Part shown: positions 25,259 through 50,313 of the stretch, piece after piece | Numbering within the stretch: the stretch's first letter is position 1 | Layout: every line of letters starts with the position of its first letter | Assembly: GCA_964641255.1 (NCBI GenBank) | Contig: CAZXMM010000001.1 | Span: 473,984-537,983, forward strand | Reading direction: 5' to 3' | Length of the DNA: 64,000 nucleotides | From: an uncultured Gammaproteobacteria bacterium | GTDB lineage: Bacteria > Patescibacteriota > Microgenomatia > JAMCZE01 | Notes under the pieces: model-generated | What the model was told of the DNA's origin: nothing | The model's input: only the letters and a program-made list of their open reading frames with translations | The model's database searches: none | Translations under genes and position numbers: made by a program

Positions 25259-25279
25259 ATAGGTAGGTTTGGTGATGAT

Positions 25280-25390
25280 TGCACTGGCACTGCAGGAGCC
25301 ACTATCAAAAATTAAGAAGTAACAAGGGTGGAACCACGGCTATGACCGTCCCTTATATCAGGTTGTTGATGTAGTGAGGACGGATTTTTT
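25280..25390 (+). promoter_or_regulatory. Compact T-box-like riboswitch leader (Gly specifier GGC) preceding the MazG-like/glyQS genes
   Basis: T-box sequence 'AAGGGTGGAACCACGG' at 25324-25339. A canonical antiterminator can be drawn: A1 aaggg/ccctt, 7-nt bulge UGGAACC, A2 acgg/ccgt. A competing hairpin ccgtcc(25346-25351)/ggacgg(25378-25383) plus T6 runs into the ATG and sequesters a GAGGA SD. The small hairpin TGCA-cuGGCAc-TGCA (25280-25294) displays GGC+A. Confidence 0.5.
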
Positions 25391-25492
25391 ATGGATTTTC
25401 AAACACTTAATAAGCGAGCACAGGAAGTGCGAATAAAATACGATAACTTAAATCGCACTCAACGGGGAAAATCCTGGGGCAATGAGTAGCTC

Positions 25493-25717
25493 ATGGAAGG
25501 TCTAGTAGGAGATATAGGGGACCTGATGAAGCTCGTCATGGCCAAAGAGGGTTGGCGGGCGGGAGATGATATTGATAATAAACTGGCCCATGAGCTGTCC
25601 GATTGTCTGTGGGTACTGTTGGTTCTTGCCGATCGCTATAACATTAAACTTGATGAAACTTTTCTAAAAACAATGGATGAGTTAGATAGTCGGATTGCTA
25701 AAGAATTAGGGAAATAA
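25493..25717 (+). CDS. MazG-like nucleotide pyrophosphohydrolase, C-terminal segment. The upstream 32 codons (25391-25486) continue the same domain but are separated by an in-frame TAG at 25487-25489.
   Basis: 'EGLVGDIGDLMKLV...AHELSDCLWVLLVLADRYNIKLDETF' matches the EVGEL/ELaDvl motifs of the MazG-like family. The N-terminal helix 'MDFQTLNKRAQEVRIKYD' is encoded in-frame upstream of the TAG. Confidence 0.6.
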   Translation: MEGLVGDIGDLMKLVMAKEGWRAGDDIDNKLAHELSDCLWVLLVLADRYNIKLDETFLKTMDELDSRIAKELGK

Positions 25718-25718
25718 C

Positions 25719-27104
25719 ATGGAAAGCACCACGCTTGAAAAAATTATCGCTCTTTGTAAACGTCGGGGCTTTGTTTTTCCTACCTCAGAAATTTACGGGG
25801 GACTGGCTAATTCCTATGACTACGGGCCTGTAGGTGCGCCCCTGCTTCGTAATATTCGCAACCTGTGGTGGAGAGAATTTATTGAGAAAAGGATTGATAT
25901 GGTGGGGATCGACAGCCAAATTCTTCTCCACCCTCGTACTTGGGAGGCCTCAGGGCATGTGGGTAGTTTTAATGACCCCGCTGTTACAGACAGTCTTAAT
26001 CACAAGCGCTACCGTGCCGATCATTTGATTGAAGCCTGGCTGAAAAAAAATCCCAAGGCGGAACAAATTGTCGTGGAAAACTTAAGCATCGAGCAAATGG
26101 GAGAGTTCATAGAGGAGAATAAAATCACGAGTCCGGAAGGGAACTCTTTGTCAAAACCCCAGCAATTTAATCAACTGTTTGAAACCCATATTGGAGCGGT
26201 GGAGGGAGATAAGTCACTGGTTTATCTTCGTGGTGAGACAGCCCAAGGCATCTTTACTGATTTTAAAAGCGTTGTTGATAGCTCTCGAGTAAAACTCCCC
26301 TTTGGTATTGGCCAAATTGGCAAAAGTTTCCGAAATGAAATCACCACTGGGCAATTTGTTTTTCGTACCCTTGAGCTGGAGCAAGCGGAGATCGAGTATT
26401 TCTTTGATCCCGAAGTTACAAACTGGGAAACATTGATGGAGGAGTGGAAAAGTTCTATGTGGTCGTTTGTTACGAAAACATTGGGTGTCAGTGAAAATAA
26501 ATTGCGCTGGCGCAGGCACACCGATAAAGAACGAAGCCACTATAGTAAAGATACTTATGATCTCGATTTTGAGTTCCCCTTTGGTTTTAAGGAACTGTGG
26601 GGAATTGCTTACCGCACTGATTATGACCTTAAGCAACATATGGAATTTTCGGGGCAAAGTCTTATGTACCGAGACCCAAATAGTGGCAAAGAGTTTATCC
26701 CCCATGTTATCGAGCCTGCAGTCGGGGTCAACAGACTTTTCCTGATGGTGCTTTGTAGTGCCTATACCGAAGAAGAAAACCGGGTAGTACTTAAACTTGC
26801 TCCCAAGCTCGCCCCCTACAAAGTGGCTGTTTTCCCACTGGTAGGGAATAAAGAAAATATCACAGCTAAAGCTTTGGAGGTTTTTAGAGAATTGAATGAT
26901 CAAATGCCCACAGTGTGGGACGATCGGGGCAATATTGGAAAGAGATACCTTGCTCAAGATGAAATTGGTACTCCCTGGTGCGTTACTATTGATTACCAAA
27001 CTTTAGAAGATAGCACCGTGACAGTCCGTGACCGTGACACCACTTTACAAGACCGGATTGCAGTTGCTAATCTTAAAGAATACTTTTATGCCAAACTTAA
27101 TTAG
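25719..27104 (+). CDS. glyQS: Glycine--tRNA ligase, dimeric alpha2 type
   Basis: 'KRRGFVFPTSEIYGGLANSYDYGPVGAPLLRNI' and class II motifs; 461 aa. Confidence 0.9.
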   Translation: MESTTLEKIIALCKRRGFVFPTSEIYGGLANSYDYGPVGAPLLRNIRNLWWREFIEKRIDMVGIDSQILLHPRTWEASGHVGSFNDPAVTDSLNHKRYRADHLIEAWLKKNPKAEQIVVENLSIEQMGEFIEENKITSPEGNSLSKPQQFNQLFETHIGAVEGDKSLVYLRGETAQGIFTDFKSVVDSSRVKLPFGIGQIGKSFRNEITTGQFVFRTLELEQAEIEYFFDPEVTNWETLMEEWKSSMWSFVTKTLGVSENKLRWRRHTDKERSHYSKDTYDLDFEFPFGFKELWGIAYRTDYDLKQHMEFSGQSLMYRDPNSGKEFIPHVIEPAVGVNRLFLMVLCSAYTEEENRVVLKLAPKLAPYKVAVFPLVGNKENITAKALEVFRELNDQMPTVWDDRGNIGKRYLAQDEIGTPWCVTIDYQTLEDSTVTVRDRDTTLQDRIAVANLKEYFYAKLN

Positions 27105-45838: not shown

Positions 45839-47244
45839 GTAAAACCTTCCGAAACAAACTAATTTTGGCAGGCGTCTCGGTTTTTCTTCAAGCGCTTCTC
45901 AATAGCGTTACTACTATTGTTATCTTCATGGAACTTTATTTTTTCCCCTGGCTTGTAAAGGTGGGACAGATACCTTACAAAGACTTTTTTGATCACCACG
46001 GATTTCTTATTTACCTTCTTCTCGCACCTTTGGCACTGGCGGGCGATGTCAGCTTACTTAAATGGCTGACCATCGTCATCAGTGCAGTAAATCTTTTGCT
46101 GTTTTTGTTCCTACTTCGCAAATATAGCGTCAGAATCATGGCTGTGGGGGCCACTCTCTTTATACTCTTTTCGTATGTTATGGTCCAAAATACCCTGTCA
46201 TACGACCTATTTTTGATGCCGGTCTTTCTTGGCGTTGCCGCTCTATTACAGGTACCAGCACCAAAGCATAGTAGCTTGGTAGGAGTTGCTTTGGGAACAT
46301 TAATCGCTAGTGTTAGCCTCATAAAGTTTCTTCCTGGACTATTAGTACTAGCGCTAGTACTCTATTTTAGAAAAGCTGTTTACTACGTTCTTGGGGTCTT
46401 TTTTCTGTCTTGGATGGCTGCTCTTAGCTACCTAGTCTATTTTGGTGCCCTTAGCGACTTTATTGACGGGTATTTTCGCTTTAACACCTTTCTTCTTTGG
46501 CGAATGCCACTTATCAAATTTGATGGCCTGCTAGATCCGCAGCTACCAATTCTGGCGGTGCTCGGGACTGTGCTCGCCGCCGCGTTTCGCCTAGCAGCGC
46601 ACAACTCTCGGGTAATTGGTAAAGACGGCCAACTCTACTGGGCACTCATACTCAGCGCACTTCCATTTCTGGCGTCGGGAATTCATGTTGGCCACCTCTT
46701 AGCCCTTTTCCCCTTTGTTCTTCTGCTGTTCCTCGGTCACTACTCAGAGCTAACACGAGTAAAGAAAAAATCTTGGAGTGTTTTACTAATAGTTCTAGTG
46801 GTGGCCCTTGTGCTAATTGCAGGGCGAACCTTTCGTCATCTAAACTTTAGAGTCACTGAATATGTTAACGACCCGATCTCGGCGTCAATTATCTCCCTGT
46901 TGCAACAAAGAAAACTGGAGCGAAAACGTCTTTTTATAAACGCTGGCTATATCAACGTTTACTACCTACTCGATAATCCTTCCCTTCACCGTTATCCGAT
47001 GAAGTTTCCCCTCATGCCTTACCCAAAACTTGAGGAATTCAACCCAGATTATGAAGCGAGCTTGATAAGGAGCCTAGTGGACAGGGACGTGGAAGTAGTG
47101 GTGTGGGTGACCCGCCCCTATCAACAGTGGGGAGAGTTAAGGGGTCTTCATTTGTTTGTCCAACATAACTATCAGTTGGTGGAGAAAGTTGATACTCCTG
47201 TTGTCAAATTTGTGCTCTACCAAAAGTCATTTCGGGGTGTATAA
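45835..47244 (+). CDS. Polytopic membrane protein (possible GT-C-like) with a C-terminal soluble domain
   Basis: 469 aa, about 11 TM helices. The stop/start junction with the preceding ORF is shared. Confidence 0.4.
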   Translation: MSKTFRNKLILAGVSVFLQALLNSVTTIVIFMELYFFPWLVKVGQIPYKDFFDHHGFLIYLLLAPLALAGDVSLLKWLTIVISAVNLLLFLFLLRKYSVRIMAVGATLFILFSYVMVQNTLSYDLFLMPVFLGVAALLQVPAPKHSSLVGVALGTLIASVSLIKFLPGLLVLALVLYFRKAVYYVLGVFFLSWMAALSYLVYFGALSDFIDGYFRFNTFLLWRMPLIKFDGLLDPQLPILAVLGTVLAAAFRLAAHNSRVIGKDGQLYWALILSALPFLASGIHVGHLLALFPFVLLLFLGHYSELTRVKKKSWSVLLIVLVVALVLIAGRTFRHLNFRVTEYVNDPISASIISLLQQRKLERKRLFINAGYINVYYLLDNPSLHRYPMKFPLMPYPKLEEFNPDYEASLIRSLVDRDVEVVVWVTRPYQQWGELRGLHLFVQHNYQLVEKVDTPVVKFVLYQKSFRGV

Positions 47245-47245
47245 T

Positions 47246-47400
47246 ATTAGTCAAAGGCGGTGAAGGAGCTATCACTCCCGAGCTTAGGAAGAACGGCGCA
47301 AGCTTAGTAGACCCTGCTAAATGAGAAGTAAACAAGGTGGTACCACGTTTCGATTAACCTCGATCCGTCCTTGCACAGTAGTGGATTGGCGGATTTTTTT
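47246..47400 (+). promoter_or_regulatory. Compact T-box riboswitch leader (Ile specifier AUC) controlling ileS
   Basis: T-box 'CAAGGTGGTACCACG' at 47333-47347 with an antiterminator: A1 caagg/ccttg(47369-47373), bulge UGGUACC, A2 acg/cgt. Competing helix atccg(t)cc(47363-47370)/ggcggat(47388-47394) followed by T6 runs into the ATG and occludes a GGA SD. Hairpin GGAG-cuAUCA-CUCC (47265-47278) presents AUC+A. A TATAAT -10 candidate lies at 47240-47245. Confidence 0.6.
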
Positions 47401-50313
47401 ATGGCAAAAAAACCCACATTTTCGGCTGTACCCAGCCAAGTAGATTTTCCCGCTAAGGAGCGGGAACTGCTTGAGTTCTGGTACAAAACCGGAATTGTTG
47501 ATAAGCATCTTCACAAAAACGACAAGGCCAAAAAAACCTTCTCTTTTATTGATGGTCCTATTACTGCCAATAATCCGATGGGGGTTCACCATGCCTGGGG
47601 CCGAAGTTATAAAGACCTCTGGCAGCGTTATCACACCATGAAAGGGGAGGCACAGCGCCATCAAAATGGTTTTGATTGTCAAGGACTGTGGGTTGAAGTC
47701 GAAGTCGAAAAGGAGCTTGGCTTTAAAAGCAAAAAAGATATCGAAGTTTACGGAGTAGGGAACTTTGTTAATCGCTGTAAAGAGCGCGTCCTTAAATTCT
47801 CTGCGATCCAAACCGAACAAACTAAACGCCTCGGTAACTTCATGGATTGGGACAATTCCTACTTTACGATGAGTGACGAGAATAACTTCATGATTTGGCA
47901 CGCTCTAAAAACCTGTTGGCAGCGGGGCTGGATCTATAAAGGGCATGAGTCTGTACCCTGGTGCCCCAGGTGTGAAACTGCTATTTCTCAGCACGAAATG
48001 CTCACTGAAGACTATAAAGAAGTGACTCACCAGTCTGTCTATTTTGCCCTCCCGCTACTGGGGACCGGTAATGAACACCTGCTTGTCTGGACGACTACTC
48101 CCTGGACGCTTCCGGCCAACATTGCCGTGGCAGTTGATACTACTTTTGACTATGTGTTAGTTGCCGGTGGTAATGGGAGGAACTATTGGGTAGTAAAAGG
48201 GAAAGAAAATTTAGTTTCGCTTACTCCAAGCGTTCTTAAAGAAGTAAAAGGCAAAGAGTTGGTGGGACTAAAATACGAGGGATTGTTTGACACTTTGGCA
48301 AAAGTTAAAAAAGTAGCACGGGAACACCCCAAGTTTCATACGGTCGTTGCCACTGATCCCCGCATCATGCCGATTACTAAGACTGAAGGAACGGGCCTTG
48401 TTCATACTGCCGTAAGTGCCGGAACTGAGGATTTTCAGTTGGGCAAGAAATTAGGACTTCCCATGATCCCCGTTATTGAGGACAACGCAGATTATCTTTC
48501 TGATATGGATTTCCTTTCCGGATTAAATGCTAAGAAGCACCCTGAAGTTGTACTTGACTACTTACTAGCGGAAACGGAAAAGGGAAAACCGTGGATTTTT
48601 AAGATTGAAAACTACACTCATAGGTACCCTGCTTGCTGGCGATGTAAAACGGAACTAGTTTGGAAAGTTGCTGATGAATGGTACATCAGCATGGATACTC
48701 CTGACCCCACCGACAGTAAGAAGCGTACTTTACGACAGCAGCTAAAAGAGGTCGCGAAGAAGATTACCTGGCTACCAAGTTTTGGGCTGGATCGGGAACT
48801 GGACTGGTTAACCAACATGCACGATTGGCTCATCTCCAAGAAAAATCGCTACTGGGGACTCGCTCTTCCTATCTATGAATGTGGTAAATGTGGCCACTTT
48901 GAGGTAATCGGCGGAAAAGAGGAATTAAAAAAAAGAGCGGTTACTGGTTGGGATCAGTTCCTTGGTAACTCTCCTCACAAACCTTGGATTGATGAAGTAA
49001 AAATTAATTGTAGTCAGTGTGGGGAGGCTGTTCCACGTATTCCTGATGTGGGTAATGTCTGGCTCGATGCTGGTATTGTTCCCTTCTCGACGCTTCATTT
49101 CCTTGATGATCCAAAATACTGGGAAAAGTGGTTCCCAGCGGACTTTATCACCGAGTCATTTCCCGGTCAATTTAAAAACTGGTTTTATTCTCTTTTAGTC
49201 ATGGGAACTATTCTTACGAAATCTCCCCCATTTAAGACGGTCCTTGGATATGCCTCACTGCTTGCGGAAGACGGTCGTCCCATGCACAAGTCCTGGGGTA
49301 ACGCGATTGAATTTAATGAAGGGGCGGATAAAATTGGCGCCGATGTGATGCGGTGGATGTTTGCGTCAGCTAATCCCACAGACAACATGCTGTTTGGCTA
49401 TAAAAAGGCCGATGAAGTAAGACGCCGGTTTTTCTTAATTCTGTGGAATTGTTATAGCTTTTTCGTTAACTATTACAATGTTGATAGAGTTGACTTGGAA
49501 AAGAAAACCGAGTTTTCAGTCTTAGACTTCTGGATTATTAGCCGACTGGATGACACCGTAACTATCGTCACGCAAAAGCTTGATCGGTTTAGTGCCTATG
49601 AGGCCACCCAGGCCCTAGAGGGATTTGTTTCTGACTTTTCAACCTGGTACATTCGCCGAAGTCGGGGGCGGGTTGGTCCTGCGAATGTGGATGAAAACGA
49701 TAAGGTTGCTTTTTATCGCACCAGCTATACCGTACTCATAACTCTTTCGCAGTTATTGGCCCCAATAATGCCATTTGTCAGCGATGAGATCTATCGCAAT
49801 TTAACTTTCCAAGAGAGTGTCCATTTATCTGACTGGCCCAAAGTTTCTAAAAGCCACAGTCATCTGGCTAACCAAAAACCTCAGACGATTATGAAATTTG
49901 TTCGTCAAGTTACTGAACTGGGTCATGCTGAGCGAAAAGCTGCAAACATCAAGGTGCGTCAGCCCCTCTCTCTCATGACAATTACCGGTCCCTATAAGAC
50001 CATTGATTCAGATTTTGTCCAGATTATAAAAGAGGAATTAAATGTTAAAGGTGTTGTGCTCAAATATAAAAAGGGAGCGGAAGTGCAAGTGGTCTTTGAC
50101 CTAAAGCTTACCCCCGAACTAAGTGCTGAGGGCAAAGCCCGAGACATTATTCGGGAAATTCAAGATGCCAGAAAAGCTGCTGGTACGGCACTTGACGAAA
50201 AAGTCGTAGTTCATCTTCCCGATTGGCCCGAGGAATTCACGGAGTATATTGCCAAAGAGACACTTGCCAAACAATTAGTCAAAGGAACTGATCTCAGAGT
50301 GGAAAGACTGTAG
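47401..50313 (+). CDS. ileS: Isoleucine--tRNA ligase
   Basis: HIGH-like 'NPMGVHHAWG', editing domain, KMSKS-like 'MHKSWGN', and Zn-ribbon cysteines 'CPRCE...CGKCGHF...CSQCGE'. Confidence 0.9.
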   Translation: MAKKPTFSAVPSQVDFPAKERELLEFWYKTGIVDKHLHKNDKAKKTFSFIDGPITANNPMGVHHAWGRSYKDLWQRYHTMKGEAQRHQNGFDCQGLWVEVEVEKELGFKSKKDIEVYGVGNFVNRCKERVLKFSAIQTEQTKRLGNFMDWDNSYFTMSDENNFMIWHALKTCWQRGWIYKGHESVPWCPRCETAISQHEMLTEDYKEVTHQSVYFALPLLGTGNEHLLVWTTTPWTLPANIAVAVDTTFDYVLVAGGNGRNYWVVKGKENLVSLTPSVLKEVKGKELVGLKYEGLFDTLAKVKKVAREHPKFHTVVATDPRIMPITKTEGTGLVHTAVSAGTEDFQLGKKLGLPMIPVIEDNADYLSDMDFLSGLNAKKHPEVVLDYLLAETEKGKPWIFKIENYTHRYPACWRCKTELVWKVADEWYISMDTPDPTDSKKRTLRQQLKEVAKKITWLPSFGLDRELDWLTNMHDWLISKKNRYWGLALPIYECGKCGHFEVIGGKEELKKRAVTGWDQFLGNSPHKPWIDEVKINCSQCGEAVPRIPDVGNVWLDAGIVPFSTLHFLDDPKYWEKWFPADFITESFPGQFKNWFYSLLVMGTILTKSPPFKTVLGYASLLAEDGRPMHKSWGNAIEFNEGADKIGADVMRWMFASANPTDNMLFGYKKADEVRRRFFLILWNCYSFFVNYYNVDRVDLEKKTEFSVLDFWIISRLDDTVTIVTQKLDRFSAYEATQALEGFVSDFSTWYIRRSRGRVGPANVDENDKVAFYRTSYTVLITLSQLLAPIMPFVSDEIYRNLTFQESVHLSDWPKVSKSHSHLANQKPQTIMKFVRQVTELGHAERKAANIKVRQPLSLMTITGPYKTIDSDFVQIIKEELNVKGVVLKYKKGAEVQVVFDLKLTPELSAEGKARDIIREIQDARKAAGTALDEKVVVHLPDWPEEFTEYIAKETLAKQLVKGTDLRVERL

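Follow-up and report, generated by a model that had tools for sequence, protein, structure and literature searches.

T-boxes are the paradigm of RNA-RNA recognition and of aminoacylation sensing by RNA alone, and the closest known relatives of the element described here are the ultrashort-Stem-I (US) T-boxes of actinobacterial ileS genes (Mycobacterium smegmatis/tuberculosis). For the US class (Sherwood, Grundy & Henkin 2015) we rely on papers that cite it (PMC7583486, 10.1101/2023.02.28.530422); as summarised there, the class is translational and confined to ileS, and a kink-turn (K-turn) with a short helix presents the specifier in a terminal loop, alongside which lie a Stem II S-turn and the Stem IIA/B pseudoknot (for the dynamics, see PMC10651847). 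Transcriptional T-boxes have been tied to a long Stem I carrying an elbow-binding platform (PMC7583486). Stem III, whose flanks form the purine string defined as 5'-RRRxG-Stem III-AA-3', has been called indispensable (PMC7583486) and necessary (PMC7583486, PMC11404447), and the IIA/B pseudoknot has been called necessary for Stems I and II to pre-dock (PMC10651847). The catalogue TBDB rests on the Rfam family RF00230 together with an ileS model that was searched in Actinobacteria only (10.1101/2020.06.17.157016). Here we describe a leader in a 64,000-nucleotide stretch of a Patescibacteria (Microgenomatia) contig, CAZXMM010000001.1, the whole of which is referred to below as the window: positions 47256-47400 are a genuine, miniaturised T-box riboswitch leader of ileS, the gene for isoleucine--tRNA ligase.

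At the 5' end of the leader lies an ultrashort Stem I (47256..47283, plus strand, as for all features of the leader), built of a C-stem (G57C58/G82C83, residues being given here by their last two digits), a K-turn with a 3-nt bulge GGU and sheared G62.A81 and A63.G80 pairs, and a 4-bp helix, G65-G68/C75-C78, closed by a 6-nt apical loop, i.e. GGAG (47265-68)-CUAUCA-CUCC (47275-78). The loop displays the specifier AUC with its 3' purine A47274 (47271..47274), an Ile codon complementary to the anticodon GAU. Stem II (47285..47316) follows, with a lower helix (U85A86G87G88 / C13C14U15G16), an internal loop of S-turn type (AAGAAC, 47289-94, opposite UAGUAGAC, 47305-12) and an upper helix (GGC/GCU) topped by a GCAA tetraloop. 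In the place where other T-boxes have the Stem IIA/B pseudoknot (F-box) the pseudoknot is missing and there is an A/U-rich linker of 7 nt, CUAAAUG (47317..47323), and this leads into the purine string AGAAG-U-AA (47324..47331), in which the flanks of Stem III are retained and a single U replaces the helix; a hidden Stem III helix was considered and ruled out, the region being unable to fold.

The T-box core AAGGUGGUACCACG (47334-47347) falls within the antiterminator (47333..47373), which consists of helix A1 (CAAGG 47333-37 / CCUUG 47369-73), the 7-nt T-box bulge UGGUACC (47338-44), whose UGGU is complementary to the tRNA 3'-ACCA, and helix A2 (ACG 47345-47 / CGU 47366-68), closed at its base by an A-U pair (A47345-U47368) instead of G.U and surmounted by an extra UCGA (47350-53)/UCGA (47360-63) hairpin. 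The competing terminator/occluding hairpin (47362..47400; stem 47362-47395, then the U-run as far as the ATG) comprises an 8-bp stem, GAUCCGUC/GGCGGAUU, with a U.G wobble, plus an inner CAC/GUG helix, and its U7 tract (47394-47400) adjoins the AUG directly. An earlier note on this DNA had placed the T-box core, A1, bulge, A2, the AUC+A hairpin and the competing hairpin, and all of these are in the sequence where it put them; it had also drawn a bulged U in the competing helix and counted six bases in the U-run, and here the stem proves to be continuous, through the wobble U68.G89, and the run to be seven bases long. The K-turn, the Stem II S-turn, the purine string and a TATAAT box are further elements of the leader that it had not listed.

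Of the motifs that contact tRNA, the leader retains the specifier loop, the S-turn, the purine string and the bulge. It resembles the US class in its K-turn, in a Stem I that is very short, shows AUC in its terminal loop and has no distal T-loop platform, and in its Stem II S-turn, its canonical bulge, the ileS gene downstream and a competing helix that reaches the translation start region. It departs from that class in its phylum, in having a 7-nt linker for IIA/B, a purine string without the Stem III helix and A-U for G.U, and in its U7 terminator-type platform, where the US class has an SD (Shine-Dalgarno)-sequestering helix without a terminator; moreover, whereas the US class is ileS-only, relatives of the window leader carry the same design on Val, Arg, Pro and Gly genes. 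Taken as a candidate US T-box, it therefore has the Stem I and the ileS gene and not the translational platform, and it has the S-turn and lacks IIA/B, though many of its relatives retain the latter. With canonical RF00230 leaders (e.g. Bacillus subtilis tyrS) it shares the GA/K-turn, a specifier with a purine after it, the T-box sequence of 14 nt, the opposition of A1/bulge/A2 to a terminator with U-run, and an aminoacyl-tRNA synthetase (aaRS) gene downstream; in contrast to them it has lost the specifier internal loop, the AG bulge and the distal loop, IIA/B and Stem III are absent, and aptamer and antiterminator together take up about 120 nt rather than about 220. It thus shows every feature of the broad T-box family that can be tested in sequence, but does not fit the canonical Rfam model. 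The T-boxes of Bacilli glyQS genes, which naturally lack Stem II and IIA/B, show that both can be dispensed with, and in a Gly-type compact leader elsewhere in the window (25271..25390, plus strand) and in L171, L184 and L143 the discriminator likewise follows Stem I directly; however, Bacillus glyQS has a long Stem I stacked on the tRNA elbow and a Stem III, the compact Gly leaders have neither, and the window ileS leader, unlike the Bacilli glyQS T-boxes, keeps Stem II. The description of the design as lineage-specific in the earlier note accordingly holds in part: the ultrashort Stem I with a terminal-loop specifier was already known in actinobacterial ileS, and the novelty lies in the fact that IIA/B and the Stem III helix have been lost, in a platform of terminator type, in the phylum and in the extension to other amino acids.

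Searched against Rfam at the gathering threshold, the whole window returns tRNA only. A permissive search of a 401-nt slice with RF00230 gave an end-to-end alignment of the leader at 25.2 bits, where the gathering score is 93, with an E-value of 8.7e-4 that holds for the slice only and is not significant at window scale; in this alignment the GA motif (UGA / GAG), the T-box sequence and the antiterminator are retained, 6 nt stand for 76 Stem I model positions, and the block of Stem III shrinks from 17 to 2 nt. Of six compact leaders put to the test, none reaches the Rfam threshold. Catalogues lack the family because it is sub-threshold in RF00230 and the ileS model was limited to Actinobacteria, and tools based on either model would miss these tRNA-responsive leaders of aaRS genes in Patescibacteria and, likewise, the T-boxes of gut and rumen bacteria that lack a Stem III helix. 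A literature search of limited coverage found no paper linking T-boxes to the Candidate Phyla Radiation (CPR)/Patescibacteria.

Relatives were collected by scanning metagenomes with a pattern restricted to the discriminator, AGAAGYAANNARGGTGGWACCNC, which places no constraint on Stem I, Stem II or the terminator. The scan yielded at least 120 loci with the helix-less string, and about 50 compact leaders of the same design are among the matches listed; this listing, together with loci from a genome collection, is the basis of all family counts of leaders, specifiers, bulges and platforms given below. Organism names (Microgenomates groups, Dojkabacteria) exist only for the genome-collection loci and not for the metagenome loci L081-L200. 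Downstream genes and their starts were curated by hand, with BLAST to IleRS, ProRS and GlyRS. A covariance model, R1, was then built from seven hand-curated leaders including that of the window, which scores 99.7 bits, as expected of a seed member. The Gly leader, which lies outside the seed, scores 36.6 bits (E ~4e-6), and nothing else in the 64 kb is credible. The match to a T-box covariance model that could be expected from the earlier note is therefore sub-threshold with Rfam and strong with a family-specific model.

R1 aligns 49 leaders in total, i.e. about 48 relatives of the window leader. In this alignment 95.9% of pair cells are paired, compared with 74.4% in column shuffles (none of 500 reaches the observed value, though the shuffle controls do not account for phylogeny) and 32-52% when the 3' partners are slid, and changes on both sides are found in 20 of the 24 pairs. 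Every pair of the K-turn stem, Stem I and both Stem II helices covaries, including all 7 pairs of the Stem I element across the ~48 leaders; the upper helix of Stem II, for example, occurs as GU/UA/GC/CG. In the seed, by comparison, G7, A8 and G25-A26-G27 at the K-turn are invariant and the Stem II GAA...AGUA motifs show no variation. Given the covariation, the agreement between codon and gene described below and the folding energetics, we judge chance to be out of the question.

That the element might be a decaying or inactive T-box remnant, or a chance resemblance, with ileS expressed constitutively or controlled in some other way, is in our estimation highly improbable, although the Rfam score is far under threshold, most Microgenomates ileS loci have no T-box (within the genome collection, a T-box core stands upstream of ileS in only a minority of Microgenomates-related loci) and the fold of the whole leader is no more stable than those of shuffled sequences (minimum free energy (MFE), z = -0.46). 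The last of these is uninformative because the RNA is bistable and the MFE mixes its two states. Against such a reading, the same reduced architecture recurs in about a dozen independent leaders, each helix showing compensatory changes; the conservation of specifier and bulge is perfect, and both are cognate; and the window contains another leader of this design. Judged from the R1 match, the pair covariation, the specifier and bulge match and the three-way covariation reported below, it appears close to refuted, and the leaders are under selection, as follows from the covariation and the perfect match of codon to gene.

The exact architecture of the window leader is common to about a dozen relatives. 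A short linker is the only sequence in the IIA/B region in the window leader and about 12 others (L105, L114, L135, L140, L152, L162, L197, L103, L107, L120, L001, L088), whereas others retain IIA/B (L100 and L115 among them), with ACGGGUAAGCCCGUUAUAGC at this place in L100, L115, L124, L146, L156, L198, L010 and L050. Stem III is kept in L059 (Dojkabacteria), L027, L049, L012 and L025, and Stem II is missing too from L110 (Ile) and from the Gly leaders. Inheritance of the ultrashort design from the nearest non-CPR group by IleRS was considered and rejected, the Chloroflexota ileS leaders being canonical with a long Stem I and Stem III. Two IleRS-linked leaders, L093:2587-2756 and L129:1859-2013, have an intermediate Stem I, in which a short distal hairpin stands above an internal loop that holds the specifier AAUCAC; they are similar to the 'short Stem I' class and suggest that Stem I length is graded from long to ultrashort.

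The reduction of Stem III also occurs outside the compact leaders. Among the matches listed, about 70 Firmicutes-like T-boxes with a long Stem I, sampled from gut, rumen and digester, likewise have a helix-less Stem III (AGAAG-Y-AA) right before A1, and one of this kind, L089:2762-2946, passes Rfam (106.8 bits) as a canonical T-box with its Stem III block reduced from 17 to 0. In all of the at least 116 genuine matches to the discriminator pattern the base after the bulge, a position that the pattern leaves unconstrained, is A (ACCACG) and never the consensus G. In the predicted fold the base of A2 thus has an A-U pair where the G.U 'steric sensor' would stand, a replacement that is strictly coupled to the helix-less Stem III.

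The codon in the apical loop is cognate to the downstream gene wherever that gene could be identified, and this extends to five amino acids. AUC precedes IleRS in all of the ~28 IleRS-linked leaders, and the specifier is in this sense conserved as an Ile codon; GUC precedes ValRS (L088, L134); CGC precedes ArgRS (L081, L160); CCC precedes ProRS (L082, L119), proB (L194) or a tRNA_bind ORF (open reading frame) followed by proS (L131, L136, L169, L172, L155); and GGC/GGA precedes GlyRS (the window Gly leader, L148, L171, L178, L184). The loops share the form NN(N)-codon-R and measure 6-8 nt. A second correspondence concerns the fourth base of the bulge, which makes the sequence UGGA in six of six leaders of Gly type and UGGU in those for Ile, Val and Pro. 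Bacterial tRNAs carry U73 for Gly and A73 for Ile, Val and Pro, which fits UGGA and UGGU, respectively. The bulge base would thus track the tRNA discriminator base and appears to provide a second, independent readout. The earlier proposal of a reduced T-box specific for tRNA-Ile, with AUC in a small apical loop, is borne out in its core.

Several leaders call for separate mention in this context. L191:1657-1762 and L200 (~1146 oriented) combine an AUC loop with a UGGA bulge, implying a U73 tRNA, and fall off the simple Ile/A73 pattern; both precede short non-aaRS ORFs, one of 120 aa without a Pfam match and the other ending at the contig end. The Pro-type leaders L131, L136, L169, L172 and L155 (loops UAUCCCG, UUUCCCG, AUUCCCA) stand before a two-gene unit, in which a 110-118 aa PF01588 protein is followed by proS. 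The ArgRS behind the CGC leaders (L081:~1682, L160:~1717 oriented) has an N-terminal B3_4 domain (PF03483), an unusual fusion, this domain being otherwise typical of the PheRS beta subunit.

The two folds of the expression platform are mutually exclusive, as had been proposed for an antiterminator opposed to a hairpin and U-run abutting the ileS start. For 47324-47376, a segment in which the 3' arm of the hairpin is not yet made, the MFE structure is exactly the A1/bulge/A2 antiterminator (-10.3 kcal/mol); over the full platform the terminator state (-17.8 kcal/mol) lies below the antiterminator state (-11.9 kcal/mol), and the hairpin taken alone comes to -15.2 kcal/mol. These energies agree with the mean values that TBDB gives for transcriptional T-boxes (10.1101/2020.06.17.157016). 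In the family as a whole, the variable base immediately 5' of the conserved CGUCC pairs with the A2 5' strand as A-U in 21, G-C in 10, C-G in 5 and G-U in 6 leaders, and with the base before the U-run as U-A in 19, C-G in 9, U-G in 9 and G-C in 3; because this one base covaries with two partners, the alignment carries the three-way signature of alternative helices that share one strand.

The results above show how the leader is built, that its two folds exclude each other and at what energies, that its pairs covary and that codon and discriminator are concordant; on this footing we consider it probable that the leader operates by tRNA-Ile-dependent antitermination as its main lock and by occlusion of the start site as a second lock, where tRNA binding, termination and occlusion are what we infer. 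Transcription would start a few bases 3' of the TATAAT at 47240-45, and the nascent RNA would form the K-turn and the 4-bp Stem I, whose apical loop would offer AUC+A to the tRNA-Ile anticodon GAU, while the Stem II S-turn would steady the neighbouring codon-anticodon helix. If the tRNA were uncharged, its free 3'-ACCA would pair with the bulge UGGU, the AGAAG-U-AA string would help to lock A1/A2, and with the antiterminator locked RNA polymerase would continue into ileS with the start region open. With a charged tRNA, or with none, the A2 and A1 3' strands (47363-69) would instead pair with 47388-95 to give the more stable hairpin followed by U7, and transcription would terminate before the AUG. 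Whenever a transcript did read through, this hairpin, lying 6 nt from the AUG, would mask the ribosome landing site and act as the translational second lock; a hairpin ending at this distance would be expected, from its modelled position, to hinder 30S loading.

Riboswitch platforms are known in which one hairpin serves as both terminator and ribosome-binding-site sequestrator, with SD-like bases in the 3' arm, then a U-tract and the start codon. The ileS leader differs from these in having a tRNA as its ligand, and its dual action is read from the layout. The earlier note had proposed that the hairpin sequesters a GGA SD; the occlusion of the start site is kept, but the SD is weak, and the GGA in the 3' arm is forced anyway because it pairs with the conserved CCGUCC. 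An SD-like motif is missing from 37 of the 50 window ORFs of at least 150 aa, as searched in the 20 nt upstream of starts that were set crudely at the first ATG.

A purely translational T-box like the actinobacterial class, with constitutive transcription and the U7 serving as an A/U-rich spacer or standby site, seems to us unlikely. The known ultrashort class is indeed described as translational in the papers cited for it (10.1101/2023.02.28.530422; PMC7583486), the ileS AUG adjoins the hairpin, and a minimal aptamer that binds slowly would suit equilibrium better than kinetic control (by the argument of PMC7583486). Furthermore, the nearest relatives L001 and L110, together with L049 and L027, have U-less helices over the SD or AUG like those of the actinobacterial class, such that the predicted type of platform varies within the lineage. 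However, a hairpin followed by U5-9 after a GC-rich stem is found in 47 of 50 compact leaders, in many of them with a distant start and no SD in the hairpin: in L100, L114, L115, L124, L129, L162 and L198 the start codon lies 10-120 nt further 3', and with neither the start nor an SD within reach the hairpin there can only be a terminator. The hairpin of the window leader is, moreover, among the two best terminator-like signals in the 64 kb. When the 175 runs of U>=6 in the window are ranked by the hairpin that precedes them, the Gly leader comes first (-18.5 kcal/mol) and the ileS leader second (-15.2 kcal/mol); this ranking was used because a simple terminator scan missed the ileS hairpin, the loop of which exceeds its rule. 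A translational device would also be at odds with a genome that seldom uses SD sequences, and the U-run worsens the SD spacing of those relatives that have one: it adjoins the start in about 14 leaders (including the window, L012, L025, L098, L121, L131, L133, L136, L150, L157, L169 and L194), several of which have a clear AGGAG in the 3' arm, with 12-13 nt between SD and AUG, where the U-less L049 has 6 nt. Such spacing suggests that the U-run is kept for termination even at a translational cost.

Nevertheless, several points weigh against antitermination as the main lock, and we gather them here. The leader lacks all three elements that have been called necessary in model T-boxes (the distal platform of Stem I, the pseudoknot IIA/B and Stem III), and their loss makes it hard to account for a binding of tRNA fast and tight enough for a co-transcriptional choice. 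The relatives were gathered with a discriminator pattern taken from the window, such that the conservation of A1 and the bulge is in part a product of ascertainment, and the R1 alignment was fitted to its own model; on an unfitted MAFFT alignment of the seed, de novo prediction by RNAalifold arrives at 23 of the 24 pairs, the Stem I helix included, and 10 of these show compensatory changes. A lax terminator scan of the whole window found no enrichment over shuffled sequence and is uninformative, giving no independent support to the use of intrinsic terminators by this organism. L001 and L110, the nearest relatives by IleRS, have U-less platforms, from which termination is not universal in the lineage. 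Finally, the window contains no tRNA-Ile gene, only a tRNA-Val(CAC), and the anticodon GAU and A73 of the tRNA-Ile are assumed.

The missing elements might alternatively mean that the minimal RNA is not self-sufficient and depends on a helper, either a tRNA-binding protein or a slow or pausing RNA polymerase, a proposal that we regard as quite improbable. In its favour, what has been lost is just what is reported to be essential (PMC7583486, PMC10651847, PMC11404447), and at five loci the Pro-type members co-regulate a small tRNA_bind (PF01588) protein with proS, such that free-standing tRNA-binding proteins do exist in this setting. There is, however, no conserved protein gene beside the ileS leaders, and the S-turn, purine string and bulge that have been retained are the tRNA contacts of solved complexes, which makes an RNA-only reading the simplest.

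Beyond the single locus it is possible, although we would put this forward only tentatively, that Patescibacteria possess a distinct and self-sufficient minimal T-box of ~85-120 nt that acts co-transcriptionally as a general regulator of aaRS genes (Ile, Val, Arg, Pro, Gly). Such a T-box would consist of a K-turn mini-hairpin, a codon loop resembling an anticodon loop, a Stem II S-turn that may be present or absent, a helix-less discriminator and the A-U sensor pair, and it would decode both the identity and the aminoacylation of the tRNA without elbow contact, IIA/B or a Stem III helix. If this were true, the statements that US T-boxes are ileS-only and translational, that transcriptional T-boxes need a long Stem I and that Stem III occurs in all T-boxes would be overturned, and a true minimal tRNA-sensing RNA would be defined. 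In the ileS leader and its relatives all three supposedly required elements are deleted by nature, and at 85-120 nt these leaders offer a minimal system in which to ask what the reading of a tRNA requires and whether ultrashort T-boxes act co-transcriptionally. For general genome biology, the element is an aaRS regulator of the expected kind.

The leader occupies a spacer of 156 nt between the stop codon (47242-44) of an upstream, unannotated ORF of 469 aa and the ileS ATG at 47401. The gene placed under its control, ileS (47401..50313, plus strand), is assigned by NCBIfam TIGR00392 (652.5 bits, cut-off 621.4), and its product has the Pfam domains tRNA-synt_1 and Anticodon_1; the start is supported by the N-terminus MAKKPTF, which aligns from residue 1 with relatives, and the best IleRS matches in the genome collection are from Patescibacteria (Microgenomates group, Amesbacteria-like) at up to 65% identity. 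A -10-like hexamer, TATAAT (47240..47245, plus strand), shares bases with the stop codon that closes the upstream ORF, and it ends 10 nt ahead of the K-turn stem. In 25 of 38 family members a match of at least 5/6 to TATAAT is found, ending 7-11 nt ahead of the first model position (mode 9). The position of this hexamer would set the RNA 5' end, which probably lies a few bases ahead of the K-turn stem. A hidden, longer Stem I upstream was considered and ruled out: with the -10 box only 10 nt before the K-turn stem, there is no room for one. Around the start codon itself, the U7 before the ileS AUG and an A7 just after it (Lys-Lys codons) are complementary (47394-47412) and could form a weak A-U hairpin enclosing the AUG; seen from the minus strand, this A7 becomes a U7 that follows a hairpin of -14.4 kcal/mol and ranks third among the 175 U>=6 runs.

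The Gly-type leader of the window has a K-turn, a UGCA-CUGGCAC-UGCA hairpin showing GGC+A, the AGAAG-U-AA string, the bulge UGGAACC and a hairpin with U6 that adjoins the AUG; with the Rfam T-box model it scores 22 bits. The two leaders had been credited with the same architecture, and a second compact T-box is indeed present, but without Stem II. Its earlier designation as a glyQS leader needs amending as well, in that a MazG-like ORF comes first and glyQS (25719-27104) only after it. This ORF (25391-25717, plus strand; Pfam MazG, E = 2e-4) lies directly 3' of the leader and is interrupted by an in-frame TAG at 25487-25489, reading as 32 aa, a stop, one codon and then 74 aa in the same frame, which could reflect a pseudogene, a sequencing error or stop-codon read-through. 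In the GlyRS-linked leader L178 (~2381 oriented) a three-codon ORF, AUG GCA AAA UAA, adjoins the U-run and the GlyRS start lies 16 nt downstream; the mini-ORF may be a relic of the layout in which the AUG follows the U-run, or a tiny leader ORF.

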